64,000 bases of DNA from a virus (IMGVR_UViG_3300047564_001181:1-64000), one strand, 5' to 3'; numbered from the stretch's first letter, positions 5,731-23,403 are shown. The notes: generated by a model from the letters alone, not told the origin. Numbers and translations: made by a program.

Positions 5731-5780
5731 TGTCAGACCTATCTGCTACACTCTCCCTACCTACTAAAGAAAGAAACAAA

Positions 5781-5981: not shown

Positions 5982-6299
5982 TTGTTTGACTTATCTTTCA
6001 TAACTGACCCATTAGCAACTATTGCTCAATGGGTTGGCTATGGTCTAATCGGTATCTTTATTGTTGGCTCACTATTCCTATTAGTTGTTGTGCCTGTAAT
6101 GTTCAAGATGGCAGCCGTATCGTTTGCTCGTGTGTTAGTTGTAGAGACTAGCAATCTACTAAGCAAATCAGGATTAGCAAATCAATTTAGCAATGCTGTT
6201 GATAGTGTTAGCAAGGCAAGCAATGAACTAACAAAGGCAATGCAAAAGCAAAACACTTATCAAGTTATCAAGTTAGATGAGGAGAAGATAAATGCTTGA
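5982..6299 (+). CDS. Membrane protein
   Basis: Long hydrophobic N-terminal segment. Confidence 0.6.
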   Translation: MFDLSFITDPLATIAQWVGYGLIGIFIVGSLFLLVVVPVMFKMAAVSFARVLVVETSNLLSKSGLANQFSNAVDSVSKASNELTKAMQKQNTYQVIKLDEEKINA

Positions 6300-6595
6300 G
6301 ATACTATTCCTAATCATAGGCTTTGCAATGGGACATCTATTTGCAACTAATAAATCATTGACACAAAAACTAAATGAATTAGATAGATAAATGGAAATAG
6401 TAATTCTAACAGTGTTAGTTCTATTTGCAATTGCTGTAATGACTAACCATAAGTAACACCCGCCCAGGGCGACATGCCCGAGCGGGGTCCCCCGCCTGTG
6501 GATAACTCTTGTCAAATCGTGTCCACCATTTGGACGGCGTGTCTTGCTTATTGCGAATACTTTGCAAGTAGTATCTCATTATTTGGAATAACGGC

Positions 6596-6632
6596 GTGTC
6601 AAGTTGAAATCTATCTCTAAATAGTGTATCTT
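6596..6632 (+). promoter_or_regulatory. Sigma-A promoter with upstream GTGTC (WhiA-like) box
   Basis: GTGTC-aag-TTGAAA-N17-TATCTT upstream of ORF 6660. Confidence 0.55.
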
Positions 6633-6659
6633 TAGCCATAGATAGAAAGGAAGTTCCAA

Positions 6660-6815
6660 ATGCACGGAAACTCAAAGTTCAAACTCACTCAGCAACTGAT
6701 TGACGCTCAGCGTGGATTAGAAATGCAATTAGAGCGTGACCCTTCAAATGATAGAATGGTTGAATACTACAAGAAAGAAATCTCTCGCCTGACCAAGCGT
6801 GTCTATGGCGTGTAA
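6660..6815 (+). CDS. Hypothetical protein (51 aa)
   Basis: GAAAGGAAG RBS; MHGNSKFKL... Confidence 0.65.
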   Translation: MHGNSKFKLTQQLIDAQRGLEMQLERDPSNDRMVEYYKKEISRLTKRVYGV

Positions 6816-6863
6816 TGTCAGACCCTTGTGCTACACTCTCACCCTAACGAAAGGAAAACTAAG

Positions 6864-7034
6864 ATGAACTTAGAAAAACAAAATCAAATCAAAGACTTAC
6901 TGAAAGTCTGTTATTCAAATGAAAAAGAAATTGTATTAGACGCAAGATTTTTTGGAATGTGTCAGGCTATGCTTACTGATGAGCAAGCAGACACTATGAT
7001 TTCATACATACAAAAATGGATTGAGGAAAAATAA
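6864..7034 (+). CDS. Hypothetical protein
   Basis: GAAAGGAA RBS; MNLEKQ... Confidence 0.65.
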   Translation: MNLEKQNQIKDLLKVCYSNEKEIVLDARFFGMCQAMLTDEQADTMISYIQKWIEEK

Positions 7035-7190
7035 ATGGGTGCAGTAAAAAATGCTCTAATTGAAATTCTAGAATGTAAATTGTGTTATGGTAAAGGTTAC
7101 TCAGGTTGGGCTAATACCGAAGGTGACTATGAGTTTGAATGGTGCGAATGCAACCCCTACGAGTTTGATGTAAGTGAATGGAGTAACTAA
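7035..7190 (+). CDS. Zn-ribbon-like microprotein
   Basis: CKLCYGKG...WCEC; abuts both neighbouring ORFs. Confidence 0.6.
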   Translation: MGAVKNALIEILECKLCYGKGYSGWANTEGDYEFEWCECNPYEFDVSEWSN

Positions 7191-7399
7191 TGGGATACAT
7201 AGAAATAATTTCATTTGATGAAAATGGAGTAACTAAAAAAAATCTTAATGAATTAAATTTTGATGAAAGAGTTTCATTAGAGGTTGATGTAGATTTAGCA
7301 TTATCAGGATTTGAAAAAGTGCAACTGCTCTGCGTAAATTGTTTAGTTGAAATTCCTAGTGGCTCAGGATTTTATTGCAAAAAACATTTACCCAAGTAG
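7190..7399 (+). CDS. Hypothetical protein with C-terminal CxxC...CxxH
   Basis: ORF track; TAATG coupling. Confidence 0.6.
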   Translation: MGYIEIISFDENGVTKKNLNELNFDERVSLEVDVDLALSGFEKVQLLCVNCLVEIPSGSGFYCKKHLPK

Positions 7400-7566
7400 T
7401 GAGATGAGCTGTCTCACCATTTGAAACGGGGGACCCCGCCGTGTGATGCACATCACAAAAATAGTTATACTCACAAGTAACTAAACTGCCTAAAAATAGG
7501 TACAAAATAGGACATATTCAATTTCCAATGTCAGACCCCCTATGTATACTCAGACCTATAAACACC

Positions 7567-7623
7567 GAGAGTGTGAGCCTCGCAAATAATCCCGAAAGGG
7601 TGAGCCGAGCAAATAAAACTCTC
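7567..7623 (+). ncRNA. Candidate pseudo-symmetric structured 5' leader, copy 1
   Basis: GAGAGT/ACTCTC outer stem, CCC-GAAA-GGG inner hairpin, two TGAGCCNNGCAAATAA strands. Confidence 0.6.
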
Positions 7624-7642
7624 ACTAAAGAAAGGTAATCAG

Positions 7643-7786
7643 ATGATTGCACTAGAAGTAATAGAAAGTGCAGAAACTATTTTCTGCGAAATTCATTCAG
7701 ACTATGTTCATAGTGCTGAGTGTGTTGATTGCGAAATGAGTTCGTGTGCCGATTGCTTACGCTCATTCGGTTGCGATAACTGCTAA
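7643..7786 (+). CDS. Cys-rich microprotein similar to 5584..5730
   Basis: GAAAGGT RBS; CxxH, CxxC, CxxC, CxxC. Confidence 0.65.
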   Translation: MIALEVIESAETIFCEIHSDYVHSAECVDCEMSSCADCLRSFGCDNC

Positions 7787-7824
7787 CCATAACTAAATAA
7801 ATTTTACTAAGAAAGGAAGTCACT

Positions 7825-8022
7825 ATGACTAACTCAATAACTATCACCCTTGAAGGTCAGTATGCTGGCTGGAATGTAACCTACTTTGAAGGTTGCACCG
7901 TTTGCGAAAATGCAAAGGCTGAAAATAAGCCTCCGTTTATCTATCACAATAACTGTCTCTATGGTGGACGCAAAGTCGGTCACTCATCTGACGGTCACTG
8001 CACCGCTGACGCTTGCTACTAA
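7825..8022 (+). CDS. Cys/His-rich small protein
   Basis: AAAGGAAG RBS; CxxC...H..C...H....HC...C. Confidence 0.65.
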   Translation: MTNSITITLEGQYAGWNVTYFEGCTVCENAKAENKPPFIYHNNCLYGGRKVGHSSDGHCTADACY

Positions 8023-8089
8023 AATAGCAAGTTTCAATGTCAGACCCCCCTGCTATACTAATCCCATAACCAAACGAAAGGAAAACTCT

Positions 8090-8215
8090 ATGAATCTCCA
8101 AGAGTTTCAAGCCAAAGTCCAAGCAGACCGCTTGGCACAAGCGGAACAACTCCGCAAAGAAAACCTTGCAAAGTCTGCAAAGTTTCTCGCTACTCTAACT
8201 AAGGAAGGAAAGTAA
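8090..8215 (+). CDS. Small helical protein
   Basis: RBS; MNLQEFQAKV... Confidence 0.6.
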   Translation: MNLQEFQAKVQADRLAQAEQLRKENLAKSAKFLATLTKEGK

Positions 8216-8392
8216 AATGTCATCACTCTTTTACTTTGATTTTTATTTTGATACAATCAACGGATTGATTATCGAATTCCCATTTCTGAATCTGCAAATT
8301 GCTCCGTCAGTTATTTATCTTTTTATTTTGACAATTATCGCTTTGCGAATTCGTAAAGTTTATTTTCTAGATAGAAAGCGTGGTCGCAGATA

Positions 8393-8557
8393 ATGATGAC
8401 TAGAAAAGACTATGTGCGAACCGCTGAAATTCTAAACACATTCAAAGATGAAATTGATAAAACAATTTTTGAAGATTTGATTTTCAACTTTGGCGAAATG
8501 TTTGCAATTGATAATCCAAATTTTGACCCTGCAAGATTTTCTCAGGCTTGCAAATAA
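8393..8557 (+). CDS. Small protein, MTRKDY...DNPxFD..RF..AC family, copy 1
   Basis: Paralogue of 10469..10645. Confidence 0.7.
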   Translation: MMTRKDYVRTAEILNTFKDEIDKTIFEDLIFNFGEMFAIDNPNFDPARFSQACK

Positions 8558-9049
8558 TCTAAACCCGCAGGGCGTGTCGGATTGACACGCCCGAGGGCGG
8601 GGGACCCCGCATAACGATTTAATAACAAAAAGATACACCCTATAGGATAAGCTTGAATTATCTACCCAAAATAGGGCAATCACCTATTTTCAATGTCAGA
8701 CCCCCTCGCTAGTATTGGGTTTCCAACCCACTACGAAAGGTTCACTGTGAGCAACTACTATGATGATGACTACTACGAGCAGGAAGGTTCGGTCACCTAC
8801 ATTGGTGACTGCTCCTGCTATGACAACTACATCTGTCGGAGTTGTTTGCAAAAGTGGTAAGGGGCTAATTGGTAGGGCGACCAAAACATTTGGCTGCCCT
8901 ACCAAATCCAAAGGCGGGGGACCCCCCTTGTGGATAACTCGTGTGACGGACATCACAAAAAAAATATTTATCCACAGCCCATTTTGTCCCGATTTTAGGG
9001 CTTCCAATGTCAGACCCCCCTTGTATAATTCTACTATGAAAATTAAATA

Positions 9050-9118
9050 GTGAGCGTTTAGGTGAGCCTAGCAAATAAGTCAGAAATGAATGAGCCTAGC
9101 AAATAAACTAAACGCCAC
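9050..9118 (+). ncRNA. Candidate pseudo-symmetric structured 5' leader, copy 2
   Basis: GCGTTTAG/CTAAACGC outer stem, TCA-GAAA-TGA inner hairpin, two TGAGCCTAGCAAATAA strands. Confidence 0.6.
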
Positions 9119-9148
9119 AAAATAAACTTACTAAAGAAAGGTTCTTAA

Positions 9149-9271
9149 ATGAATACTGAAAATGAAAATAAAGAAATCACTTGTGAAATGTGTTTAATCT
9201 TTGGTGAATACACTCACATTGCTTATGTAAATGGTCACGGATACCATTGCACTTGTGACCGCTGTTTCTAA
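9149..9271 (+). CDS. Cys/His-rich microprotein
   Basis: GAAAGG RBS; CEMC...HCTCDRC. Confidence 0.6.
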   Translation: MNTENENKEITCEMCLIFGEYTHIAYVNGHGYHCTCDRCF

Positions 9272-9324
9272 CAGCGTGTCATACCCCTATGCTACAATTT
9301 CTCCCATAACGAAAGGTAAACTAA

Positions 9325-9450
9325 ATGTTTTGTAATGTATGTAATGATTTTATTGATAGTGCATTTGATGAAGAGGTAACTTGCATAGATTGTGCGTTGT
9401 CTGATTTTGATTTAGAAATTGAAGAGATTGAATTGGAAGAGGTATTCTAA
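9325..9450 (+). CDS. Acidic Zn-ribbon-like microprotein
   Basis: RBS; CNVC...CIDC with Glu-rich tail. Confidence 0.6.
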   Translation: MFCNVCNDFIDSAFDEEVTCIDCALSDFDLEIEEIELEEVF

Positions 9451-10242
9451 ATGATGTTCTACAATGGATTTAATTTACTTATTGATTTAATTTTGATTAG
9501 CGTTACTGCGTTATGGTTTCACGGCGTTGGATATCGTAAGGCTAAGCACTACTATCAGAATAAATTCAAGGGATATTTCAAACCCCCGTTCTAGCGACAC
9601 GCCCGAGCGGGGTCCCCCCGCCAGCTCCGCTGTCAAATCGACACGCCGTAAATCCTAAAATTGTTATCAAATGTTTACCAAAATCGGACAAATGCCTTAT
9701 TCGAGTGTGGCGAAGGTCACAAACTAAATTCGGACAAATGCGACTTTCGAGTTGCCGAATGTCAGACCCCTATGGTATCTTTAGCACATAAAGAAAGGAA
9801 GTCTAATGACAAACTCATTCAAGTCACTTGATGAACTCAAGCAATTCGTGCTTGCTGAAAAAATTGCTAACTATGAACAACAAAAATTAGTTGAGCAAAA
9901 ATTGTTCGCTTCACTACAAAAGAAAGGTAACAACTAATGTTAGATTGCGATTGGTGCGAAAAATATTTCGCTATGCAAGATTTATTCAATGTAGACTACT
10001 TAGGTGGTTTCGCTAATGTGTTATGTGCAAAGTGTGTTGATGAGGCACACAAAATGTTTGCAGATACACTAGAAGGAGTGTGGCAGTAATGTTGCTAAAC
10101 ACTTATGCTAAAACTCAACTAATGTGTTGCTATTGCGAAGGCTTATTGCCTAGTGATGCAAAATGGTGCGAGAGTTGCCAAGAATACAAAGGCGTAATGA
10201 CTATCGCAAACTTTCAAGAAATCTATGGAGAGGAATACTAGA

Positions 10243-10455
10243 ATGTATCCAATTACTGAATTGCTAAAAGGTGGCTCAATGTACACTATCAAAAGTGGAG
10301 TGTTCATTGAAGACATTGACCGAGTAGAATTTGACGCTTGGGGTAAGTTGCGAATTCGTGGCTATCACACCGAATGGTATGGAATACTTAGCCATTCACC
10401 AAAGCGTGAGCGTTGGACTATTCTTGACCCTAACGACATTGACCTAAGTGCATAA
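10243..10455 (+). CDS. Hypothetical protein
   Basis: ORF track; start MYPIT after GAGGA. Confidence 0.55.
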   Translation: MYPITELLKGGSMYTIKSGVFIEDIDRVEFDAWGKLRIRGYHTEWYGILSHSPKRERWTILDPNDIDLSA

Positions 10456-10468
10456 GGAGAAATAAAAA

Positions 10469-10645
10469 ATGATGACACGCAAAGACTATGTAGCAACTGC
10501 AGAAATTCTAAATGGAAATAGAATTTTTATTCACCCTGCAACATTCGCAGAATTAGTAAATGAATTTGGAAATTATTTTGAAAATGATAATCCACGATTT
10601 GATTTTGCAAGATTTGAAAATGCTTGCAACGGAAAGGAAAAATAA
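10469..10645 (+). CDS. Small protein, MTRKDY...DNPxFD..RF..AC family, copy 2
   Basis: AAGGAG RBS; paralogue of 8393..8557. Confidence 0.7.
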   Translation: MMTRKDYVATAEILNGNRIFIHPATFAELVNEFGNYFENDNPRFDFARFENACNGKEK

Positions 10646-10968
10646 AATGGATTTATTAGCATTAGCAATAATTATGGCAATTGCAATTCCGTTTTTTATT
10701 CACTTGGAAAAATAATAAAATGGAAATTGTAATTTTATTTTTTGTTTTACTTTTTATTTTTGCAATTGGAACTAATTCAAAATAAAAAAGTGTATCGCAA
10801 CACGAGCAGCTGCGAGGGCGGGGGACCCCCGCAAGCCCTGGATGTCAAGCCGACACTCCGATAAATTTTGTGAGATTAATCACAAAAGTCGTGTCCGAAT
10901 TGGTAGGATTCTGAGTTGTGGATGTCAGTGGCTTATGGTATCTTTAGACCCTAACGAAAGGGGTCTTA

Positions 10969-11505
10969 ATGACTAACTACTTTGAAAAATACTTAGCAAT
11001 TGCTAAGAGTGCAACACTATCTCAGGTTGAACAAGCAACGCAATGGTATGCAGACGCAGAATTATTAGCGAATGATGTAATGCGAATTCTAAACTCTCGT
11101 GGCGTTGAATGTAATCTTGAACAAGCCTCGTCAATTGTATCCTCATTCTCACCTCGTAATCGTTGGTCACGCAATGTAGTGCAAGCATTAGAATTTGCGA
11201 ATGGTGGATTGCCTAATGGATTGCAAAATAATTTGCGAATGGCACAATACTCACTCGTGCAAGGTTTCAGTGCGTTGCGTGGAATGAAAACTAATGCATT
11301 CGCTCGTGCAATTGCAGGTGATGATAGTGCAGTTACAATTGATGTGTGGATGATAAAATCTGCTGAACTAAATAAAAATTCTGTAAATAAAACTGAATAC
11401 GCAGAATTAGTTAGTGCAGTTAATTTAGTTGCGGATGAATTAAAATTAACTCCACGAGTAACGCAAGCGTTAATCTGGATTGTGTTTAGAGGTAGTGCAT
11501 ACTAA
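10969..11505 (+). CDS. DNA-glycosylase-like (HhH-GPD-related) phage protein
   Basis: WY...SP..RW..N, K..AF...VTIDVWM and QALIW motifs. Confidence 0.5.
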   Translation: MTNYFEKYLAIAKSATLSQVEQATQWYADAELLANDVMRILNSRGVECNLEQASSIVSSFSPRNRWSRNVVQALEFANGGLPNGLQNNLRMAQYSLVQGFSALRGMKTNAFARAIAGDDSAVTIDVWMIKSAELNKNSVNKTEYAELVSAVNLVADELKLTPRVTQALIWIVFRGSAY

Positions 11506-12055
11506 TGGAAATTTTATTTTTACTAATTGCATTATTATTTTTAATTGCAAAATTAACAAACACAAAATAAAAAAGCTAGGGCGACACGCCCAAGCGGGGG
11601 GACCCCCGTATCGGGTCCCCCGCCCCTTTTGTACTAATTTACGAGAGGCTAATTTTATTCACTGGAATTTTACGATAGGCAAACAAAAAGGCTGGAACTT
11701 GTCCAGCCTTTAAGATTTCTGTCTCACTATTTGGGATTTGTCAACAAAGCGATAATGAAACAAAATAATAACAAAATGATAACAATTTCCAAACTATCCC
11801 TTTCGCCCTATTTTTATTAGTAGCCAATTTTACCAAAAAGTAACCAAATTGTCAAGGGTGTCCAAATAGTGAGATTATTCTAAATTATCTTGACAAGCAT
11901 AGGCTCTATGGTGTAAGGTAGCCCTATGAAACCAATACTCTCACCCAAAGCAACGCCTGAGCAATTACAGGCACGACTTGAACTACGCCGTTCAGGTGCG
12001 TCAGGCTTGCATAAAAATAAGAAAGCATACTCCCGAAAGGAAAAGCACAAGAATA

Positions 12056-12241
12056 ATGAATACTAAGTCATACTTTCTATCAGAGTTAGATTACTCAACC
12101 ATAGTTTCTGCACTTGCAAAACTTGCAGACTTTCACTTTGAAAAGTCAAAGACTTTGAAGCGTGAACAAGATGTTCAATTTCACTATGAACAATTTCAAA
12201 AAGTAATGGAAGTAAAGTTCAACCTACGGGAGCAAAAATGA
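12056..12241 (+). CDS. Hypothetical protein
   Basis: ORF track; likely start MNTKSY. Confidence 0.55.
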   Translation: MNTKSYFLSELDYSTIVSALAKLADFHFEKSKTLKREQDVQFHYEQFQKVMEVKFNLREQK

Positions 12242-12579
12242 CATATGCACTAAAAGTAACTACAAGTGGTGAGCGTATCGGTATCAACTATGACGCTGAC
12301 GAATCCTATGAAACTATCTCACAAGCAGTTGGTGGTTGGATTGAATGTGTTCGCCTTACACCTACGCTTGATATGTGGGTAAATGAGGAAGGCAAGTTAG
12401 ACGGGTTAGACTACAACCCTGACGCTACTGCTATCTTTTGGTCACACTTTGGCTTGATGTCAGATGTGATTGTCGGTGATGTTATTTTTACTTCACACGA
12501 TGATGAGGGAAATACAACCTCTCTTGAAAATGAACAAATGGAATATTTACAAAAACACATAGGAGCATTCAGTGAATGA
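12238..12579 (+). CDS. DUF3846-like protein
   Basis: VGGWIE...MWVNEEGKL..L..N..AT...IVGDV pattern. Confidence 0.75.
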   Translation: MTYALKVTTSGERIGINYDADESYETISQAVGGWIECVRLTPTLDMWVNEEGKLDGLDYNPDATAIFWSHFGLMSDVIVGDVIFTSHDDEGNTTSLENEQMEYLQKHIGAFSE

Positions 12580-12781
12580 TTTTTGGAGACAATACTATTC
12601 AAGTCTTGAAGGTGCAACAATTACCAAATTCGCAGGTATGAACGATGCGGAAATGGGAGACGGATTCCCAGCCTTTATGGTGCGTTTCGCAAATGGTGAT
12701 GAAGGTATCATTGAGATTTCTCGTGACCCTGAAGGTAATGGTGGCGGATTTATTTTCGGATTAAATATGCCGCAGCAATAA
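12572..12781 (+). CDS. Hypothetical protein
   Basis: Contains the SRDPEGNGGGF motif seen in small phage proteins. Confidence 0.6.
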   Translation: MNDFWRQYYSSLEGATITKFAGMNDAEMGDGFPAFMVRFANGDEGIIEISRDPEGNGGGFIFGLNMPQQ

Positions 12782-12997
12782 TTTTTTAAATTATTTTTTA
12801 AATTTAATTTAAATTATTTCTAAATTTTATTTAGAAAGCTGGGGGTCCCCCGCCCGCTTTGTGATTTTAATCACAAAAATATTTCTACCAAGTAGTAACT
12901 AAACCCCATAAAATTGGGACAAAATAGGACATTCTCAAAAGGTGATGTCAGACCCCCCTGCTAGTATTGGGCTATGCCCAAACGAAAGGAAATGCAA

Positions 12998-13132
12998 ATG
13001 ATTATTTGCTCAAAATGTGATGAAGTTCTTTACACCGACACTATGCCCGAAGGCTTTGACGAAAATGTATTTGTAATGTGTGCCTCTTGTGCATACGATT
13101 ACACAATGTCAGACCCTAATGGTATTCTCTAA
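12998..13132 (+). CDS. Zn-ribbon-like microprotein
   Basis: CSKC...CASC; in-frame leaderless ATG at 12974 also possible. Confidence 0.6.
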   Translation: MIICSKCDEVLYTDTMPEGFDENVFVMCASCAYDYTMSDPNGIL

Positions 13133-13154
13133 CCACTAACCCGAAAGGAAAAAA

Positions 13155-13379
13155 ATGTTCTCACTCCCCGTTGATGTAGCAACCCCTTGCTCAACTATTC
13201 CACTTGCCGAAGCCGACAAGTTATTTTTTAGCGAAAGCCCAAAGCGTATCGCTGTTGCAAAAAATCTCTGTGCCTCTTGCCCTATCACCTCAAAATGTTT
13301 GCAGTTCGCACTTGATGAGGAAATTGAGTTTGGCATTTTTGGTGGCACAACTCCACAAGAAAGAAAGGTAATGCTCTAA
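13155..13379 (+). CDS. whiB: WhiB-family transcription factor
   Basis: C...CxxC-x5-C and GIFGG turn; driven by promoter copy 12. Confidence 0.9.
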   Translation: MFSLPVDVATPCSTIPLAEADKLFFSESPKRIAVAKNLCASCPITSKCLQFALDEEIEFGIFGGTTPQERKVML

Positions 13380-13500
13380 TGGAATACCAAGTTACAAAAG
13401 TAGTCACCTATTGGGTGCAAGCAGAAAGCCGAGACGAAGCATTAGCAAAAGTCAAAGCAGGAAAAGTAAAACCAAGCGAACAGTATTTGGAGGCTAACTG

Positions 13501-13701
13501 ATGTATCGCTCACAAGTTGATTTGATTTTGAATTTTGTAGACAACAGCACAATGTTGTTTGCTGATGTTCACCCTGATAACACTTACAAAGTTGTAGACG
13601 GGCTAATTACTTTTGAAAGTAATGACGGCGAACAAATCCATTACCTGCCAGCAGTAAATGTAAAAAACTTTTTTACTGTTGCAACCGAACCACACGATTA
13701 G
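13501..13701 (+). CDS. Hypothetical protein
   Basis: ORF track. Confidence 0.6.
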   Translation: MYRSQVDLILNFVDNSTMLFADVHPDNTYKVVDGLITFESNDGEQIHYLPAVNVKNFFTVATEPHD

Positions 13702-13711
13702 GAGAAACAGA

Positions 13712-13924
13712 ATGACTGAAGAATTAACAGCATACCGATACCACCGAGACGGACTAATTTTTTCTTGGCTTGGTGGTGCATACATAGAAATTTATTTTGA
13801 AGGTAATGCAATCCCCTATGATGTTTTGAATGTGTGGAACTATGAAAAAGATGAGCCAACAATTGAACGCTCTATGCGTGGGCTAGTTGATTTCATAGAT
13901 GCAGAAATGGAATTGGAAGAGTAG
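13712..13924 (+). CDS. Hypothetical acidic protein
   Basis: AGGAG RBS; start MTEEL. Confidence 0.6.
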   Translation: MTEELTAYRYHRDGLIFSWLGGAYIEIYFEGNAIPYDVLNVWNYEKDEPTIERSMRGLVDFIDAEMELEE

Positions 13925-14080
13925 CGACAAGGGCGGGGGACCCCGCCCCTGGACTGGCAGCTTTCACCCTTTACGACTATGCAAAAAAAATCACGGAAAT
14001 TCTTTTACGATACACTTGACAAATCGCTGAAAATCGTGTATGTTTGCCTAGTAAATCCAACCACTATCAAAGGAAATCAA

Positions 14081-14410
14081 ATGGGAAGTAATCTCTCAAA
14101 TGAAATGACAGACGGAACACTCGAAGACTTGGGTATTAGTTTGTCACTAGAAGACCAAATCACTATTCAACTACGCTCTAATCACTATCCACCCGTTCCT
14201 TATTCTATGGTGCAACCTTGCATTGACGCTATCTTGGCTTGCAACGAAGATGAGAGTAACCGACAAATTGAACTGCCTGAAGGTGTGCTATGGCGTAATC
14301 AAACTACTGCACCTGCATACGCTATCGTTGAAGGTCACCACCTTGACGCTTGGGTAGACTATGGTGATGTCTACGAATACGAAGACTATGATGTAAGTGA
14401 GGATTACTAA
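14081..14410 (+). CDS. Hypothetical phage protein
   Basis: AAAGGA RBS; start MGSNL; NHYPPVP...HHL motif. Confidence 0.65.
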   Translation: MGSNLSNEMTDGTLEDLGISLSLEDQITIQLRSNHYPPVPYSMVQPCIDAILACNEDESNRQIELPEGVLWRNQTTAPAYAIVEGHHLDAWVDYGDVYEYEDYDVSEDY

Positions 14411-14411
14411 A

Positions 14412-14618
14412 ATGGAAGATGAAGTAATCAACCGCTATGCTGTAAAGGTTATTGTTGAATACTACTATGATGTAGAGGCAAAGACTAAAGAAGAAGCAGA
14501 AGAAGAAGGTTGGAAGTATGAAGACTATCCTTATTCTGCCGAAGTCTATTCAATAGATGTAGACTTATTGGAAGAAGACATTTATGGAGAAGAGCCTGAA
14601 GATGAAGATGTGGACTAA
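14412..14618 (+). CDS. Very acidic protein with VEA..EEA motif
   Basis: ORF track; start MEDEV. Confidence 0.6.
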   Translation: MEDEVINRYAVKVIVEYYYDVEAKTKEEAEEEGWKYEDYPYSAEVYSIDVDLLEEDIYGEEPEDEDVD

Positions 14619-14838
14619 TGAGACTTGTCTCAACTGCCCTAATCTAATGAAAAATGAATGGTATGCATTCGCAGATGATGACATTCAGTTATGCCACGCT
14701 TGTTACAATAATGAAAATCTAAGGAAACATTCTTATGCCAAAATCTAAGACTGTGTATCGTTGTGCAAATGGACACACATCTACTAACTCAAAAGACGCT
14801 CTATTGCAATTCTTCTGCAAATCCTGTTTAGAAGAAAA

Positions 14839-15054
14839 ATGATGTATTATTCTTACATGAAGAAAGCATGGCACATTGACGGCTACACATTCAATGGGGA
14901 GATTTATTGCCGCTCCTGTGTAGCAGAAACACTTGAAGACCCCGACTTCAATGACCCTTACACTCTAGATGAACACCCACAGTTCAAACCAATCTTTGCA
15001 TCTGATAATGATGATGAACTGATGTGTGACTACTGCTTCGCAGAGTTGGACTAA
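14839..15054 (+). CDS. Zn-binding small protein
   Basis: CRSC...CDYC. Confidence 0.6.
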   Translation: MMYYSYMKKAWHIDGYTFNGEIYCRSCVAETLEDPDFNDPYTLDEHPQFKPIFASDNDDELMCDYCFAELD

Positions 15055-15190
15055 TCCAGCTCTGCGGGGGTCCCCCGCCTCCAAATATTTATAAAAAATA
15101 TTTGGATTTTTATCCGATTTCCTATTGACAATTTTCAGATTTTGGTGTATCTTTGCCCTGTAAATAAAACCCCACTACTAAGGAGAAAAA

Positions 15191-15685
15191 ATGGGATTAG
15201 ATATGTATCTCTATGCAGATAAGTATGTAAGCCGTAAGTCAAACACTCGCATTGAAGGAACTGACTATGACTACTACGACAATGAAGCATTTGCAACTAT
15301 TGTTTCGGCTCTCAATGCAGATAAGTTGATTGACAACGAATGGTCTGGTATGACTGTTTCTTTGCCTATCGGTTATTGGCGTAAGGCTAATGCTATCCAT
15401 TCTTGGATTGTTGATAATTGTGCAGACGGCGTTGATGAATGTCAGCGTATCTACATCTCTAAGGATAAGGCTGAGGAGTTAGTCTCTATCTGCAAAGAGG
15501 TTATCAAAAATAAGTCTAAGGCTACCGAACTCTTGTCTCCACGAGCAGGATTTTTCTTTGGTTCATTAGACATTGACGAATACTACATTCACGACCTCAA
15601 GCGTACTGTTGAAATCTTTGAGAAAGTTCTCAGGGCTTCCGAGCGTGGCGAGATTGAAAGTGTAGTCTACCAAGCAAGTTGGTAA
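15191..15685 (+). CDS. Conserved phage protein (MGLDMY...YWRKANAIH family)
   Basis: AAGGAG RBS; recognisable family motif, function unknown. Confidence 0.75.
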   Translation: MGLDMYLYADKYVSRKSNTRIEGTDYDYYDNEAFATIVSALNADKLIDNEWSGMTVSLPIGYWRKANAIHSWIVDNCADGVDECQRIYISKDKAEELVSICKEVIKNKSKATELLSPRAGFFFGSLDIDEYYIHDLKRTVEIFEKVLRASERGEIESVVYQASW

Positions 15686-15768
15686 AACTTGGTTGGGTGG
15701 GCTTGACAAAGCCCACCCACCTATGATACACTTCCCCCGTAATACAAACCCACTAACAAAGGAAAACT

Positions 15769-16203
15769 ATGGAAAACACATTCAACTTTGAACAAGCAAG
15801 TTATGTAGATTTGCTTGCAGAAGCACAACGCCTAAACGGATTAGTTGCAGACCTTCACGGAACTGCTACAACCGCCAGCAACAAACTTATGTATGTTGAA
15901 AAGGCATTTGCTAATCGTGACCGACAATACGCACTAGCAAAAGAAATTCTTACAACTCTCATTGAAGAAAATGAGATTGAAAATGAAGAAGCCGTAAAGC
16001 AACTCATTGAAATCTTTGACATTGAGATTCTAAAGTCTGTTGAGTTCACCTTGACTATTGAAGTCACAGGAACTATTGAACTTCCAATGGGTTCAGAACT
16101 AGATGAATACTCATTCACCCTTGAGAGTCTTTCTTACAATGGAGATGATGTAAGTATTGACCACGAAAGCATTAGCATTGACGATTGGAACTTTACTGAA
16201 TAA
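15769..16203 (+). CDS. Acidic hypothetical protein
   Basis: RBS and own promoter. Confidence 0.7.
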   Translation: MENTFNFEQASYVDLLAEAQRLNGLVADLHGTATTASNKLMYVEKAFANRDRQYALAKEILTTLIEENEIENEEAVKQLIEIFDIEILKSVEFTLTIEVTGTIELPMGSELDEYSFTLESLSYNGDDVSIDHESISIDDWNFTE

Positions 16204-16871
16204 TAGTGGGTGAGATGTGCTGGGCATCACTTAAAACTGCCCACTTAATAATTTGTCTCTGATAAGCACTTGGCTTAATTGCTAGGTTATTCCTGAGATA
16301 AGACTCCTGAGCAAGAGTTCTAAACTGCTCATTTACCCCCGCAAAACGGGGGACCCCAGCTGTGACGCATGTCACAGTATTTCTTTACGAACACCCTTGA
16401 CAAACCCTGTAATCTGTGATAGATTTTCCCTATGGAAAACAACAAATCACCCCTAGAAATTGTAATGGAATGGTATCCTGACGGAAACTTCACAGAAGAA
16501 GACCTTTGGGAAGCAATAGGCGAAAGTGACGGCTGGAAGCAAGATTACTACGCAGACGGAGACTTAGCAGAATGGCTCTAAAGTTTGACCCACTAGATGA
16601 CATTGAAGTATGCTCTAAGTGCTTTGATGATGAGGAATATGACTTTGGACTATGCATTGCTTGTGTAGAAGAAATGTTGGAGGACGAACTTGAATCTGTT
16701 CGATAATGTAATTGACGAAAAAGTCATTGAATCATTAGATAAAGAGACATTAGAACAACTCCTAAATATTTTGGAAAAAATCTAAAAATACCCTTGACTT
16801 TCTTGCCGAGATACGGTAAGATTACCTAGTAATCAAATTGGTTACTAAAACTACAAAAGAAAGAAGCAAAA

Positions 16872-17021
16872 ATGATTGAAATCGGTTCAAGTTTCACAAC
16901 TGCTAAATCAGGTGTTGTTGGAACTGTTCAAGAAGTAATCAAAAACGCAAATGGCTCTTTGCGTGTTCGCCTTGATGTCAATGGTGCAGACCGTTGGACT
17001 ACTGTAAAGGAAGGCAAGTAA
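16872..17021 (+). CDS. Small beta-barrel (SH3-like) protein, copy 1
   Basis: MIEIGSSFTTAKSGVVGTV...LDVNGADRWTT; tandem paralogue of the next gene. Confidence 0.65.
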   Translation: MIEIGSSFTTAKSGVVGTVQEVIKNANGSLRVRLDVNGADRWTTVKEGK

Positions 17022-17179
17022 TGTCTAAGCCTATGTACAAAGTCGGTGACACTTTCACCACGCTCAAGTCTAAAGTTACAGGAGTTATCAAAGAAATTAC
17101 TCCTGTGAACTCAAACACAGTTCGCATTCTGCTTGATGTAAACGGCAAAGACCGTTACACTACATACAAAGCAGACTAA
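17021..17179 (+). CDS. Small beta-barrel (SH3-like) protein, copy 2
   Basis: YKVGDTFTTLKSKVTGVI...LDVNGKDRYTT. Confidence 0.65.
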   Translation: MSKPMYKVGDTFTTLKSKVTGVIKEITPVNSNTVRILLDVNGKDRYTTYKAD

Positions 17180-17516
17180 TTTCCACAAAGGGTGGAAAAC
17201 CTAAATGATAGGGTAGTTACGGCTCGCAATGATACACGAGTAAGAATACCGTAGTCGGTATCGCCGTAACCGTTCTCGCATAACGCAAATTGCGAAACAC
17301 CTGAGCAAGTGTCAAAACTGCTCTCTTGCTAAAGCAATTCCCAGAGATAAGTGGGATATGCACACCTGAGTAAGTGTTAAAACTGCTCATTTTTTAATGA
17401 GCAGAGCTGGGGTCCCCCCGCTTGGATTCCCCAAAACTTTATGAGTTTTGGGCTTGACTTTTTGATTACGATAGTGTAGGTTTAGCCCTGTAAATAACCC
17501 ACGAAAGGAAATACAA

Positions 17517-17720
17517 ATGGCAAGATACGAAGTAGAAGTTATCGGACACTTCTCGTCTGTTGTAGAAGTAGAAGCAGATTCATACGAAGAAGCAGAAATG
17601 GTTGCAGTGCAAGACTTTGAGCAAGACTATTCTCCATACTCATCTAAAAATGGTTGGACAGATTCTTGGGGTCATACGGAAATAGAGATGTGCCGTAATC
17701 TTGATGAAGAAGAATACTAA
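17517..17720 (+). CDS. Acidic protein with VEADS.EEA motif
   Basis: RBS and promoter. Confidence 0.65.
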   Translation: MARYEVEVIGHFSSVVEVEADSYEEAEMVAVQDFEQDYSPYSSKNGWTDSWGHTEIEMCRNLDEEEY

Positions 17721-18042
17721 AATGCAACTTGCATACTTTGCTGGTGACGGCAACTACGGATTAGAAAATGGTAACTTTGTTCTCGTAGATGTATCTAAGT
17801 GGACAGAAGAAGATTGGGAGCGTATTGAAATGGCTTCTGATTATCAACGACCAATGATGGCTATGTCTATCTCCGCAGTTTATGAGGGATAAAGTGAAGA
17901 ATAGTCAAGACAGTTTCTACTGGTCAGAACTGGCAGAACTAACACACGAAACACAAGTAGGTATCTTTGGCTGGTGTTCTTGTGAAGACAACGAAGACAA
18001 CGATAATCCATTTGGTGATTGTCCTAAAGATGAAGGATAATA

Positions 18043-18276
18043 ATGTCTGATAACTTAGAGTTTCATTATGTAGTTTCATACCGAGAAGGCTACGGCTGGG
18101 GCATTGCAATAGATGTTGAACAGGCTGTAATGACTGACGGAACTATCTATGATTGGACACAAGGAAATGGTTGGACTTTCCCATTAGAAGGTGAACTATC
18201 CGACCTTGACTTACATCACTATCGTATGCTAAACTCCGCACTAAACCTACTAAATGAAGGAGCAATAAATGCCTAA
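18043..18276 (+). CDS. Hypothetical protein
   Basis: ORF track; AAGGA RBS. Confidence 0.6.
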   Translation: MSDNLEFHYVVSYREGYGWGIAIDVEQAVMTDGTIYDWTQGNGWTFPLEGELSDLDLHHYRMLNSALNLLNEGAINA

Positions 18277-19003
18277 CTGGGTATTCAATACAGTTGTTGT
18301 TTCAGGTGACAAACTTGAACTAGACAAACTACAAGCACAACTAAATCAGCCATTTGAAAAGCATTTCCCTGATAGCAACTTCAATCAGGAAACTAAAGAA
18401 TGGGAACACACACCTTCAACTCAGGTCTATTCTAATCCTGTATTTGCTTTCTGGAATGTTGTTCGTCCTACCGACCTTGAAGCCTACTATGGTGAAGAAA
18501 AGGAAAAGGTTGGACTAGATAACTTTATGGCAGATTTCAATAATGCTATTGCAACTGGAGAGTCTTGGTATTATTGGAACTTGCGTAACTGGGGAACAAA
18601 GTGGGATGTCTCTGTTACAGATGGAGAGAAGTATTCAGACACATCTCTTGAAGTAATGGATGATGAGACTATTCTGTATCGTTTCCATACTGCTTGGTCT
18701 CCTGTTCACGAAATCTTCAACATTCTTTCAGAACAGTATCCTAGTTTAGAGTTTGACTATGAATACGAAGAAGAACAAGGTTGGGGTGGAAGTGCATTAT
18801 GGGTAGATGGTTACTTAGTTGGTGAAGAACAATACGACATTCCAAACTCACACTATGACTATGAAAAACGAGACAGAGAATGTCATTGTTCAGAAGGTGA
18901 AGCCGTAGATTGGGCTTACTCAGACTGTCCTGTTGATACTGAAAAGTATGAATGGAACAGCGATAACCATAACTGGGTTGAGAAGCAAGGGGTGGAGGCT
19001 TAG
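18269..19003 (+). CDS. DUF1281/YubB-like (ferredoxin-like fold) protein
   Basis: MPNW..N, WY.W...NWGTKWD and F.TAWSP motifs. Confidence 0.75.
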   Translation: MPNWVFNTVVVSGDKLELDKLQAQLNQPFEKHFPDSNFNQETKEWEHTPSTQVYSNPVFAFWNVVRPTDLEAYYGEEKEKVGLDNFMADFNNAIATGESWYYWNLRNWGTKWDVSVTDGEKYSDTSLEVMDDETILYRFHTAWSPVHEIFNILSEQYPSLEFDYEYEEEQGWGGSALWVDGYLVGEEQYDIPNSHYDYEKRDRECHCSEGEAVDWAYSDCPVDTEKYEWNSDNHNWVEKQGVEA

Positions 19004-19160
19004 CCTCCCCCCCAAGCTCGGGGGTCCCCCGCCTTCCCCGATTTGTCAAGTGCCAAATCGGAAATGTCCGAAATAAATATTTATTTATTTAGACTTGACA
19101 AATGCCTATCTAATCGTGTATCCTTGCCTAGTAAATAAAAAACTAACTAAGGAGAAAAAA

Positions 19161-20138
19161 TTGCCCGCTGAAATTGAAAGTTTCGCTTCGTATCGTGAAC
19201 CTGCTTGGCACAATCTAGGAACAGTATTTGACCACGAAGTTACTTCGTCTCGTGAAATGCTAAACCTTGCTGGACTTGCAGGTTGGAATGTTCGCTTGGA
19301 GGAAGTCACCTATCCTGAAGGATACACAACTTCACTTCCACAATCATTCAATGTTGTTCGCAATCACCCAACAGACGGAAATCCTGATGTGCTTGGTGTT
19401 GTAGGCTCACGCTACAAAGTTTATCAAAATGAAGAAATGTATGACTTTGCTGATGGCTTGCTTGATGGTGCAAGGTGGGAAACAGGTGGTTCGCTAAAGA
19501 GCGGAACAGTTGTATTCGGTTCACTTGCATTAGAGCGTGAAACTGTGCTTGACCCTAATGGCGTTGCAGATGTTGTCAAGAATTACATCTTGGTTTCATC
19601 TAGTCATAATGGTACAACTTCACTTCAGGCTTCCGTAACACCTACTCGTGTTGTGTGTGCAAATACGCTTGCAGTTGCATTACAAGGTGCAAAGCAATCG
19701 TTCAAAATCCGTCACACTCAATCTATGGACGGCAAAGTTGCTCAGGCTCGTGAGGCGTTAGGTCTAACCCACCAATACCTAGATGAGTTTGATAAACTTG
19801 CTAAGGCTATGATTGAAAAAGAAATCAACGATAAGGTATGGCTTGACATTATCAAGACCGCTTACCCTAAGCCTGAAACAGATGCAAAGGGTTCATTCGT
19901 CAAGTGGGATAACAAGGTTATGGAATTGGAAAGTATCTATCGTGGTGACACCAATTTTATGATTGCTGATACCGCTTGGGGTGCATACAACGCTTTGACA
20001 GAACGCTTGGATTGGTATCGCCCTGTCCGTAGTGGTAATGAAGAAAATGTTTATGCTTCCGCTTCAGGCTTTGATGTTGCAACTCAAAATGAAAAAAATC
20101 GTTTGTTGCAAATTGTAAGCAAAGTTGTTTCGGTCTAA
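19161..20138 (+). CDS. DUF932/DUF945 phage-plasmid protein
   Basis: REPAWH.LG, LGVVG.RY...QN, RVVCANTL, IRHT, TAWG.YNA motifs; TTG start after AAGGAG. Confidence 0.85.
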   Translation: MPAEIESFASYREPAWHNLGTVFDHEVTSSREMLNLAGLAGWNVRLEEVTYPEGYTTSLPQSFNVVRNHPTDGNPDVLGVVGSRYKVYQNEEMYDFADGLLDGARWETGGSLKSGTVVFGSLALERETVLDPNGVADVVKNYILVSSSHNGTTSLQASVTPTRVVCANTLAVALQGAKQSFKIRHTQSMDGKVAQAREALGLTHQYLDEFDKLAKAMIEKEINDKVWLDIIKTAYPKPETDAKGSFVKWDNKVMELESIYRGDTNFMIADTAWGAYNALTERLDWYRPVRSGNEENVYASASGFDVATQNEKNRLLQIVSKVVSV

Positions 20139-20179
20139 CTCTAGCAACCTGAGCAAGTTGTAAAACTGCTCACCTATTT

Positions 20180-20256
20180 GGTTCTGTAGCTCAGTTGGTT
20201 AGAGCGTTGCCCTGTCACGGCAAAGGTCACGAGTTCAAGTCTCGCCAGAATCGCCA
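20180..20256 (+). tRNA. tRNA-Asp(GUC)
   Basis: Cloverleaf; TTGCC-CT-GTC-AC-GGCAA anticodon arm; TTCAAGT T-loop; encoded CCA. Confidence 0.9.
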
Positions 20257-20388
20257 GCGGCGGGGGACCCCGCACTCGGGCGTGTCTATTCATATGAATA
20301 GTCATCTATAAATAGATTACGAGCTTCCAAAAAAAATCACTGGAATTTTGGGCTTGACAAATCCGTGCTTATGGTATAGGGTGTGCCT

Positions 20389-23270
20389 ATGGAAAAAAAC
20401 AACCCTATGATGGAAAAGTATGTAACTATCTCTTGGTGTCCTGCTGATATTAAAGCAGTACGAGAGGAATGGTCTGACGAGAAATGTATGGAAGTATTGT
20501 TAGATGTAGGCGGTTGGCTAGAAGACCGTTCAATTGAATTAGGTTGGGAAGTTCTAGAAACCCTCCTTTTAGACTATGATGAGGAAGAAGAATAATGTTA
20601 CAAGTTTATGAGTTTGACGGAAGTGTAATTCCAGGTAGTTACACTAATTGGTTTGAGGTCTATGAAGCAGAAGATATCCTTAAGCCAATTTACTTTTCAG
20701 ATAGTATTGACAAAGTGGTTAAATACTGTTATGATTCGGGACAGAACTTTGAAATAAATACCCTACAAGCCTACTACAACGAGCACGGAGAAGAATAGTG
20801 ATTAACCTACAGTTCTACACAGTAAGAGAGTTTGACATTGTTTATGATGTTAAACTTGATGAGAAAGACCCAATTGTCCTTAAGTTCCTTGAAGATAATG
20901 AATTATCAGTTAAAGACTTATATGAACTAGACTTTAATCAAAGTTTAGAATTATGGTCAGAGATTATCGGTGACGGAAGTGTTCCACTAGAAGAAGAAAT
21001 CCTAGAAGGCAATGAACGCTTTGTAGACTTGGAGGTTAAGTAATGATAGTTAGATATTGCCACTACTATGATGAGACTCGTGATGACCCCGCCTTTTACA
21101 CATGGGATACGCCTGAATTTGTAGCAAGTGTTTCAGATGGTGTTCGACAACTAGAAGCGTGGACAGTTGGTGAAATGGTTATCTATTTACCCAATGATGT
21201 TACTATTCGTTATGCAGATGATTTAGAAAATGCTGATATCTATTCAGATACACAGTTACACGAAATCGGAAGAACTGATGAAACCCTAAATGCTTGGGAA
21301 CATAACTCATGGATAGAACTCCGTGATTATGAAGGACAATGGATAGGTGATATATTTTCAGGACATGTCTACCATAGCGTTAAAGAAGCCGTAGAAGCCA
21401 TGAAGGAACTTCTAAATAATTCAGAATTTTTATCAGAATACCCTTGTTTAATTTCAGAAAATGTGGTAGGTTAGCCCTATGAATTTGGATAATTTACAAG
21501 CACGGCTACAAGACAATTTAATTACTTACTTATCAGACCTTCCAGATAGTTTAATTGACGGAGTTTGCCAAGTTGTAGTAGATACCTTTAAGGAGAACAA
21601 GTGAAGTATTCAGTAGAAGCCCGACAAATTAACTATGGTCGCTTTGAGATAGAAGCAGACAGCGTAGAAGAAGCACAAGCAATCCTTGATGAATTAATCG
21701 AAGATGATTTCATTAGAGACACAGCAGAGTGGGAAATTGGAGAAATTGAATTGGTAGGTTTACGATAATGTTACCAGACACAATTAACGCTATGAAGATT
21801 ATTACCTATGATGTTAAGAACATTGTAGAAAGTCTTACAGAGAATGATGAACAGCCACGAGAAGTAGATTTAGAAGAAGTTATGGAAGTTGTCAGAGCGT
21901 GGGCTATTGACGACTTTGGAGATAATTGGAATGTCTTTTACCAGACAGATGATGGAGATGAACTCTAATGACATACTACCCAATTCAAGTAAATGTAATT
22001 GTAGATGCAGAGACATTAGAAGAAGCACAACTTAAAGCCACCTTATTTATGCCGTGGACGACATCAGGCAGCGATTGGCATTTGACAGGTCACAAGTATC
22101 TTGCTCAGCCGTGGAAGATTGACCAATGGAATATTGAAGGCACAGACAGTGATGAGATGGACGGCTTGCTGCAACGATTGGGTTACAGATGAACGCCATC
22201 TTTAGCCCAGTAACAAACAAAGCCTATTTTAAGAAACATGGCAAACTCTACGAAGCCCCGTTTGATATAGACACAAAAAACATTGACTTTATGGAGGTCG
22301 CTGTGGTAGACTACTTTTTTCTTACTCCTTTGGAGTTTGAGAACGCTATGGAAATGTTAAATGCATTGGAGGAATATGAAGTACAGTAAGCAAGACATCG
22401 GAGTGTTTATTCCAGGTGTAACAGAGAATGACAGCGTAGAGCAAAACTTCAAGATTATTGACTTTGCTATCACTAATGGATTTGAGATAGATATCCAGGA
22501 ATTGTCTTATGCCAAAGACGAGTATGCAAACGATAAAGACGAACTCGGCTGGGGCTGGTTTGAAGACATTGGTTATGTAACTGAAGAAGCATTAGAGTAT
22601 CTAAATACAAAGTGTGTAGAGCAGGGGGTAGTGTTTACATTTGTAGATACTGACTTTGTTCTACTTGACAGCAACTATGAGAGTGTGGTAGGATAGGGCT
22701 ATGGAAAGACGACTTTATGAATTTGAACCACTATTTAGGCTAACTGATGTTGGCACACACGCACAGGGTAATCCTTTTACCCTACTACAAAGCGTTTATG
22801 AAATGGCTATCTTCAACGGATACTCAGGCGGATTTGTAGATGAAGAAACAGACGAGCCATTAGACACTTGGGAAGGTCTTACTGATGACAACTACCAAGA
22901 ACTGCTAGATAGTGTCCTTGATTACCTGAATACATACAACTGCGTAGATGTAAGGCTTGTGGTAAAAGATGATACCATTCAAGTTGTAGAGGACATTGGC
23001 AACGGATTTGACCCATACTATCGGGAGGAATAATTGCCCCAGAGCAGAGAAGAATCAGGTGCAAAGAAAATTGCAGATATCTTCGCTGACGAAAGACTCA
23101 ATGTGGTACAACTCGGTTATCACTCGTCACTAACATTCACACCTAACATTATTGAAAAGATAAAAGGTTGGATACATTGGCACGAGCAGGTCAGCGAAAA
23201 CATTGAAGTGAGAGATGACGGGGGAATGAATTACATCGATGGGGATTACCTTCAATATATAAAAAGATAA
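20389..23270 (+). CDS. Run of about 12 small, highly acidic hypothetical ORFs (20389, 20595, 20798, 21043, 21478, 21601, 21768, 21968, 22189, 22376, 22701, 23034)
   Basis: Overlapping start/stop coupling; several leaderless starts. Confidence 0.65.
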
Positions 23271-23284
23271 TTAAAATGTTATTG

Positions 23285-23310
23285 CTGCAAGCCTACGGGC
23301 TTGCAGCTTT
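23285..23310 (+). terminator. Intrinsic terminator ending the early region
   Basis: GCTGCAAGCC-tacg-GGCTTGCAGC followed by a short T run. Confidence 0.7.
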
Positions 23311-23403
23311 GGCATACCCAAAAAACGGGGACCATGCCAGGGTCCAGCAAATTGTCGACATATCTCTATATACACATATCCTTATATATCTAAACATACA
23401 TAC

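Follow-up and report, generated by a model that had tools for sequence, protein, structure and literature searches.

GC-rich hairpins at the ends of permuted early gene cassettes in an uncultured phage: stem-loops of putative terminator-promoter boundary modules

Promoter-early stem-loops (PeSLs) are known from the T4-type phages RB49/phi1, T4/PST and KVP40/nt-1 (Arbiol et al., 2010, PMC2839356; Comeau et al., 2014, PMC4122927). Their stem-loops are rich in polyG and polyC and terminate transcription in a reporter assay (PMC2839356). They are concentrated among orphan genes and have been implicated in insertions and deletions (indels) and in mini-circles (PMC2839356; PMC4122927). Here, we describe a short GC-rich element, a G run and a C run separated by a single A or T (W), that recurs in the virus sequence IMGVR_UViG_3300047564_001181:1-64000, a stretch of 64,000 nucleotides (nt) to which we refer as the window. 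The layout of hairpin-promoter cassettes is already known from T4-like phages; what we find is a new version of it, with genome-specific signatures, in a new phage group.

The IMG/VR virus record, of which the window covers the first 64 kb, is 95,186 bp long, has 38.5% GC and is estimated to be 87% complete. The public runs containing this sequence are freshwater metagenomes, with no RNA run among those listed. The virus encodes a terminase, tail proteins, RecA, a DnaB-type helicase and a DnaE-type polymerase, whose top phage matches are Streptomyces phages (about 55% identity); five tRNAs and one transfer-messenger RNA (tmRNA) lie within the window. It is an uncultured freshwater siphovirus, and its host is probably an actinobacterium, because of the relatives of its polymerase, two promoters of the leaderless type and a promoter word (see below), which we take to resemble the actinobacterial PafBC (RecA-NDp) motif. 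Plus-strand genes, about 60 small open reading frames (ORFs), lie at 4–24 kb, and minus-strand genes follow from 24.7 kb on (Table 1). The larger ORFs of the early region match only DUF7178, DUF932, DUF3846 or nothing. A nucleotide search of this region against 50,697 phage records returned zero matches, and Rfam, at its gathering threshold, reports only tRNAs, the tmRNA and a manA RNA, with nothing at the GC elements.

The word GGGGWCCCC occurs 14 times in the window, where 0.03 occurrences would be expected, and a 15th core, GGGTCCCCC at 11613, completes the 15 copies counted in a first-pass annotation of this DNA. All cores are composed of three to six G, one W and four to six C, and the exact 12-mer GCGGGGGACCCC is found nine times (five forward, four reverse; 0.04 expected). 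Their range is 6484–20271, and the remaining 75 kb of the record contain none. The annotated end of the array, at 23345, overshoots by 3 kb, because the last core is located at 20271. Neighboring cores are 317–1611 nt apart, matching the 0.3–1.6 kb given before, except for one pair (11596/11613) separated by 17 nt. The described placement, between the last ORF of one unit and the regulatory block of the next, also holds: all cores are intergenic and stand at the end of plus-strand units. At 12 of the 14 sites, the core begins 5–59 nt past the upstream stop codon or tRNA end; the remaining two are 144 and 229 nt from the upstream gene end and are preceded by non-coding stretches. The next start codon follows 74–318 nt downstream of the core, with a promoter in between.

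These surroundings share a common order, namely stop codon, variable first hairpin, GC palindrome, operator-like sites, promoter, ribosome site and next small ORF. The first hairpin is usual after the stop codon and has a predicted stability of -12 to -22 kcal/mol, with a mean of -13 kcal/mol for the fold of the 50 nt upstream of the elements. The element itself, read as plus-strand RNA, would form an all-GC hairpin of 5–7 bp with a loop of 3–4 nt, and the local folds at the elements range from -6 to -17 kcal/mol. Several copies have a three-arm C-G-C layout, in which the G run has a choice between two partners, the downstream C run and a C-rich arm upstream of it (for instance 6461–6495, 9583–9621 and 16336–16357). 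Operator-like sites downstream of the palindrome include GACACGCC half-sites and DnaA boxes at 6497–6505, 8929–8937 and 8968–8976, of which the first two directly abut elements 1 and 4. DnaA bound at such boundaries may act as a roadblock or regulator, or the boxes may titrate DnaA. After every element, within about 35–140 nt, a promoter-like block is predicted, which belongs to one of two classes: a TTGACA-17/18-TATCTT type at six elements and a ATGTCAGACCCC-N-TAnnnT type at the others. The distance from the core to the -35 box is 35–74 nt for the sigma-70-like promoters and larger for the others. The ATGTCAGACCCC-N-TAnnnT word is present in at least ten copies over 5730–13139 (e.g. at 8037, 9007 and 12945), and in relatives, its copy at the DUF7178 gene has the form TGTCGGTG-N8-TAGGAT. 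The module closes with AACGAAAGG, a conserved ribosome-site leader. Each unit thus consists of a promoter, one to six small ORFs and a hairpin, in agreement with the proposal of self-contained units bounded by the elements.

Some further features were seen in and around the modules. Perfect TGTGA-N6-TCACA sites, which correspond to the CRP/GlxR-type consensus, occur five times (0.15 expected; 7442–7457, 8942–8957, 10869–10884, 12860–12875 and 16361–16376), each between a GC element, which ends 3–40 nt before it, and the promoter that follows; they may be sites for a host regulator of the cyclic AMP receptor type or for a phage regulator. In two promoters, at 16397–16434 and 20354–20391, the -10 box lies just 6–8 nt ahead of the ATG, a distance that suggests leaderless messages, a trait common in Actinobacteria. 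In the related phages L204, L118, L127 and L114, a DnaA box in either orientation is fused to almost every boundary GC word. Finally, two genes of the same unit are separated by a very stable hairpin (-24.8 kcal/mol, 15689–15722) with TTGACA in the loop, which resembles classical PeSLs, in which a promoter-like box lies inside the stem-loop.

The forward and reversed copies distinguished in the first-pass annotation correspond to eight cores with a central A and seven with a central T. As the core is almost its own reverse complement, the orientations differ chiefly in the central base and in a one-base imbalance between the G and C runs. The two forms are real, however: the asymmetric word GGCGGGGGACC is kept, as is its complement GGTCCCCCGCC, and in relatives with 78–83% identity, site 13 is likewise of the T form and site 14 of the A form. 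The near-absence of U-tails is likewise borne out, with at most five T in the 12 nt past every core. A canonical tail is found only at 11596/11613, where the two cores form one joint long hairpin that is followed by CCUUUUGU. A consensus scan picked up just one of the 15 cores, at 15066. From the two orientations and the missing U-tail it had been concluded that the element acts at the DNA level; this conclusion is not supported, as a palindrome gives the same hairpin either way.

A comparison with relatives also speaks for a role in RNA. Via the early-region DUF932 and DUF7178 genes, we retrieved some 100 loci from a large group of uncultured phages; the closest relatives, L216, L220 and L221, are known as short metagenome contigs. 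An exact 14-mer scan of IMG/VR returned 101 contigs, nearly all of them single chance matches in GC-rich viruses, and G001 was the only true relative among them. G001 (36.8 kb, 37% GC) has homologous early genes, including a conserved module ahead of the DUF7178 gene (element 6), and about 16 boundary hairpins, in which constant arms, GCGGGG and CCCCGC, enclose the loops CTAC, CAC, CAA, GA, GAA or GATC. Together with three other genomes, it forms a set of 75–86% mutual identity in which each member has its own palindrome (GCGGGG-CAC-CCCCGC, GGGGGTCGACCCCC, GGGGGGCGACCCC and GGGGTACCCC), and therefore both arms change together. The palindrome of L124 is GGGGGCCGCCCCC.

The same turnover is seen at orthologous sites. 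In L220 and L221 (78–83% nucleotide identity), elements 13 and 14 are kept with the same central base (T at element 13 in L220, A at element 14 in L221) and other run lengths, and at element 12 of L220 the G run has shrunk to GGG with the C run intact. In L216 (75%), both element 13 and element 14 are replaced by unrelated GC hairpins, and homology restarts at the promoter. The GC hairpin located 3' of tRNA-Asp differs from lineage to lineage, and in L119, L130 and L131 the signature hairpin at this site is followed by a U-run, forming a canonical terminator. Furthermore, the related loci contain 153 distinct GC tetraloop hairpins, in which GNRA and UUCG loops occur 29 times on the sense strand, compared to four occurrences of their complements. 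Pairing is thus conserved rather than sequence, the arms change jointly and the choice of loop is strand-specific, which indicates an RNA hairpin at the unit ends. The variable loops between constant arms, from 2 to more than 4 nt long in relatives and thus a poor match to a fixed dimer site, the unrelated and in part U-tailed hairpins at orthologous sites and the sense-strand UUCG and GNRA loops also speak against the proposed DNA-level site.

The cassettes between the modules have been reordered among these relatives. Homology between members of the clade comes in blocks of 0.3–2.5 kb in permuted order, which end at or just before a hairpin and start 53–58 nt after one. Between G000 and G001, for instance, the DUF932 gene and its neighbor are swapped across a hairpin, and a unit of tRNA-Asp plus hairpin has moved relative to the two. 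In a test of adjacency, which relied on rough ORF calls and on reciprocal, phylogenetically non-independent pairs, orthologous neighbors stayed adjacent at 15 of 58 gaps with a GC hairpin versus 132 of 212 other gaps (odds ratio 0.21, p ~1e-6). Gene-order breaks are thus enriched at module-bearing gaps, and the idea of shuffleable cassettes is supported, because the blocks between modules are permuted among relatives. The modules of G000 fall into sub-families whose shared sequence extends 30–66 nt past the core, and two units end in paralogous genes that adjoin elements. The presence of one signature per genome, combined with the difference between orthologous modules of different genomes, indicates homogenization by gene conversion. 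A mobile miniature element was also considered and rejected, with no target duplications or flanking repeats seen.

Given these observations, we propose with moderate confidence that the element is the stem-loop of a PeSL-like boundary module, combining a terminator or attenuator with a promoter, and that it works in RNA. This proposal builds on the directly observed position of the elements, their pairing potential, the conservation of pairing over sequence in relatives and the permuted cassettes; an activity in termination or stabilization and a mechanism of recombination are what we infer from them. About 14 composite modules would split the early plus-strand region, with the GC element as their stereotyped stem-loop half. 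The hairpin would mark the 3' end of each early unit, one tRNA included. It could attenuate transcription or end it with the help of a factor and/or, where termination takes place further downstream, halt 3' exonucleases. As an outcome, each unit would be driven mainly by its own promoter. Since the GC word and the adjacent promoter block recur about 14 times, they would also provide short homology for recombination and gene conversion. The RecA of the phage is a possible agent of such homologous exchange between repeated modules, which would homogenize the word within a genome and reorder promoter-gene-hairpin units between genomes.

This organization compares well with that of PeSLs, as the first-pass annotation had suggested. 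Likewise, the modules are intergenic composites of a stable polyG-then-polyC stem-loop, a predicted early promoter of the host sigma-70 type and a ribosome site; they cluster in a hyperplastic region made up of small genes without known function, with all copies at 6.4–20.3 kb; and differences in gene content and order between relatives map to them, as an association. There are also clear differences. The stem-loop lies 35–140 nt upstream of the -35 box, whereas that of PeSLs is within or next to the promoter, and the phage is an unrelated siphovirus rather than a T4-type myovirus. The element is usually the second of two hairpins, often in the three-arm C-G-C layout, and each genome has its own signature palindrome.

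Two other phage systems share individual traits. In mycobacteriophage L5 and other members of cluster A, stoperators are asymmetric 13-mers that all face the same way with respect to transcription and are bound by the prophage repressor of these temperate phages. Like the element, they repeat one short word many times in narrow gaps between genes and are proposed to stop transcription from unit to unit; by contrast, the word described here is palindromic, occurs in eight A and seven T forms on one transcribed strand, and comes from a record in which no integrase was found. The early RNase III sites of T7 are irregular helices of about 20 bp within one long transcript. They resemble the element in being intergenic stem-loops without U-tail that yield hairpin-ended early messages, but the stems considered here have 5–7 bp, and each unit has its own promoter. 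RNase III sites were rejected, as the stems are too short, and so were lambda-type nut/boxB sites, given that the elements are found at the ends of units and not after promoters.

Several findings weigh against the proposal of a terminating or attenuating RNA hairpin. First, the element follows a gene end shortly, as the GC-rich hairpin of a canonical intrinsic terminator does, but lacks the 7–9 nt U-rich tract: in 13 of the 15 copies, a U tract is absent. Whether hairpins without it terminate transcription is disputed: mycobacterial RNA polymerase depends on the U tract in vitro (PMC3993855), which casts doubt on simple intrinsic termination here. On the other hand, Term-seq of Streptomyces clavuligerus recorded 3' ends at hairpins without U tracts, which are either ‘I-shaped’ terminators or trimmed Rho-dependent ends (PMC8269248). 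These are likewise GC stem-loops, although diverse in sequence (PMC8269248), whereas here, one word is reused 15 times at predicted unit ends. In view of the missing U tract and of these conflicting observations in Streptomyces and mycobacteria, we speak of an attenuator or factor-assisted terminator and/or of 3' protection. Second, the copies of the word in one genome vary far less than ordinary terminators do, and many of them are palindromes with a center of 0–2 nt, which is optimal for duplex-DNA symmetry and not for RNA. Third, the sister phages L204, L118, L114, L121 and L127 carry the word CCGCGCCCC or CTGCGCCCC at the same place, whose local fold is no better than that of shuffled sequence, which is mostly sense-oriented (7 of 8 in L204, 7 of 7 in L118 and 5 of 6 in L127) and which directly abuts DnaA boxes. 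It could be a decayed palindrome, or a sign that a factor reads the GC word itself. With regard to recombination, gene-order breaks are expected at operon boundaries even without any recombination driven by the modules, and one small ORF (17900–18047) is precisely absent from the 78% identical L220, away from any module. As operon boundaries tolerate rearrangement and this indel is precise to the ORF, the role of the modules in recombination is to be regarded as an association and not as a mechanism.

Many of these findings would fit a site in duplex DNA, that is, a binding site for a phage or host protein or a GC clamp that is hard to melt, acting as a roadblock or insulator, possibly with an adjacent DnaA, and with a hairpin potential of secondary importance. 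The absent U-tail, the near-zero spacers, the stereotyped word with a different signature in each genome, the unstructured and non-palindromic word of the sister phages and the DnaA boxes abutting elements 1 and 4 can all be read in this way. Nevertheless, we consider such a site rather unlikely. In G001, the spacer varies from 1 to more than 4 nt within a single genome while the arms stay constant, which is awkward for a dimeric site; unrelated hairpins, including canonical U-tailed terminators in some relatives, fill orthologous positions; neighboring hairpins show an RNA-type loop bias on the sense strand; and no candidate binding protein was identified.

A broader view, to which we give little credence, is that the GC word marks a lineage-specific boundary system, in which each phage has its own short GC signature. 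Some phages would have a palindrome, others a C-rich word that lacks structure, keeps one orientation and is fused to a DnaA box. The signature would be read by a co-evolving phage factor or by DnaA of the host acting as a roadblock, so that early units end without a U tract, and the signature sites would also drive the exchange of cassettes.

It is also distinctly improbable that the hairpins are signals for RNA processing or stability only, with long read-through early transcripts being cut nearby, e.g. in the C-rich tract next to the hairpin by RNase E or J, to leave hairpin-protected 3' ends. Copies without U-tail, tandem hairpins with a C-rich 3' flank on the sense strand and the hairpin immediately 3' of tRNA-Asp, where processing must occur, would be in keeping with this, but stems of just 5–7 bp are too short for RNase III, and nearly every unit has its own promoter right past the hairpin, which suggests separate transcripts.

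The first-pass annotation had also likened the cassettes to those of integrons, while remarking that no integrase was in view. Indeed, like integron attC sites, the elements are imperfect palindromes bordering small mobile gene units, and the gene order is permuted among relatives, as would be expected of site-specific recombination sites for cassette excision and insertion. We nevertheless find this reading highly improbable: the tyrosine and serine recombinase families PF00589 and PF00239 are absent from the 95-kb record, which is an estimated 87% complete; each cassette comes with a promoter-like block of its own; attC sites are much longer than the palindromes, whose sequence differs among closely related genomes; and homology breakpoints are spread over about 70 nt rather than confined to one point. 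Equally remote is an action on incoming DNA near the first-entering end, as injection-pause, Chi-like nuclease-attenuating or decoy/restriction-type sites, since the clustering of copies in one 14-kb early region, the GGWCC-type sites within the palindromes and the two orientations would suit it, but not the strictly intergenic placement between stops and promoters, for which such roles give no reason, nor the different sequences in close relatives that presumably share hosts. The record, a linear fragment without end repeats, does not define the genome ends.

Returning to the PeSL-like boundary module, the findings extend the organization and shuffling of early orphan genes in terminator-promoter cassettes beyond the T4-like coliphages, to freshwater phages of a large, uncultured group. 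Their hosts are probably actinobacteria, in which hairpin termination without U tracts is still debated, and the 15 near-identical U-less hairpins, along with the variants of their relatives in arms, loops and presence or absence of U-tails, constitute a natural test series for hairpin function. Likewise, the genome-specific signatures make a clean case of concerted evolution of regulatory repeats.

Table 1. Positions of the GC elements and of the regions discussed in the text, with the features next to each element
Feature	Position	Strand	Gene context	Adjacent features
Early region	5300..23300	+	about 60 small ORFs, mostly without family, in about 15 promoter-to-hairpin units	
Element 1, T form, GCGGGG-TC-CCCCGC	6482..6495	+	27 nt past stop of 21-residue hydrophobic micro-ORF	upstream C-rich arm 6461–6466 able to pair with G arm; DnaA box next, at 6497
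Element 2, A form, CGGGG-GA-CCCCG	7427..7438	+	28 nt past stop at 7399	preceded by first hairpin 7399–7417; TGTGA-N6-TCACA next, at 7442
Element 3, A form, GCGGGG-GA-CCCCGC	8597..8610	+		8+5+8 palindrome GGCGTGTC-N5-GACACGCC just upstream (8575–8595)
Element 4, A form, G5-A-C6	8914..8927	+		10-bp hairpin upstream (8871–8904); DnaA box (8929) and TGTGA-N6-TCACA (8942) downstream
Element 5, T form, GCGGGG-T-CCCCCCGC	9607..9621	+	14 nt past stop at 9594	upstream CCCCCG arm at 9583 able to pair with G arm
Element 6, perfect 7+1+7 palindrome GCGGGGG-A-CCCCCGC	10818..10832	+	33 nt past 21-residue hydrophobic micro-ORF	
Elements 7a, 7b (G6-A-C5, G3-T-C5)	11594..11625	+		one joint long GC hairpin, -22.5 kcal/mol, then CCUUUUGU
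Element 8, G5-T-C5, outer AAAGC/GCUUU stem	12841..12851	+		TGTGA-N6-TCACA after it, at 12860
Element 9, GGGCGGGG-GA-CCCCGCCC	13931..13948	+	10 nt past stop	longest stem (7–8 bp, -17.8 kcal/mol); TTGACA-17-TATGTT promoter 72 nt downstream
Element 10, perfect palindrome GCGGGGG-T-CCCCCGC	15064..15078	+		shares bases with 3' arm of 12-bp first hairpin (15037–15068); TTGACA-17-TATCTT promoter at 15125
Element 11, three-arm CCCCCG-CAAAA-CGGGGG-A-CCCC	16336..16357	+	closes 144-nt non-coding stretch	then TGTGA-N6-TCACA at 16361 and leaderless-type promoter at 16397
Element 12, G4-T-C6	17409..17419	+	closes 229-nt non-coding stretch	after hairpin 17383–17404
Element 13, CGGGGG-T-CCCCCG	19019..19031	+	second of two tandem hairpins past stop at 19003	
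Element 14, GCGGGG-GA-CCCCGC	20260..20273	+	4 nt past tRNA-Asp (20180–20256)	
RecA homolog, phage-encoded	51771..52778	-		

A few minor observations concern the genes of the early region. Three paralogous hydrophobic micro-ORFs of 21 residues, which start with MEI (6391–6456, 10721–10786 and 11506–11571), are each the final reading frame ahead of a GC element. Paralogous pairs of small genes are found at 8393–8557/10469–10645 and at 16872–17021/17021–17179. Both members of the former pair lie near the 3' end of their own unit, close to elements 3 and 6, which suggests a cassette-end duplication as their origin.

Lastly, two non-coding features may represent small RNAs. On the minus strand, a strong promoter match (TTGACA-17-TAAAAT with TG, 11855–11827) faces a canonical terminator composed of A-tract, hairpin and T-tract at 11711–11687, so that 11687–11855 may encode a candidate antisense small RNA of about 110 nt within the early region. 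A repeated motif, CCTGAGCAAG-N-AAACTGCTC, is present at 16304–16330, 17297–17332, 17362–17397 and 20145–20180, that is, inside the two long non-coding stretches that close at elements 11 and 12 and just ahead of tRNA-Asp. It is nearly invariant in the relative L220 and may represent small RNA genes or a tRNA-type leader.

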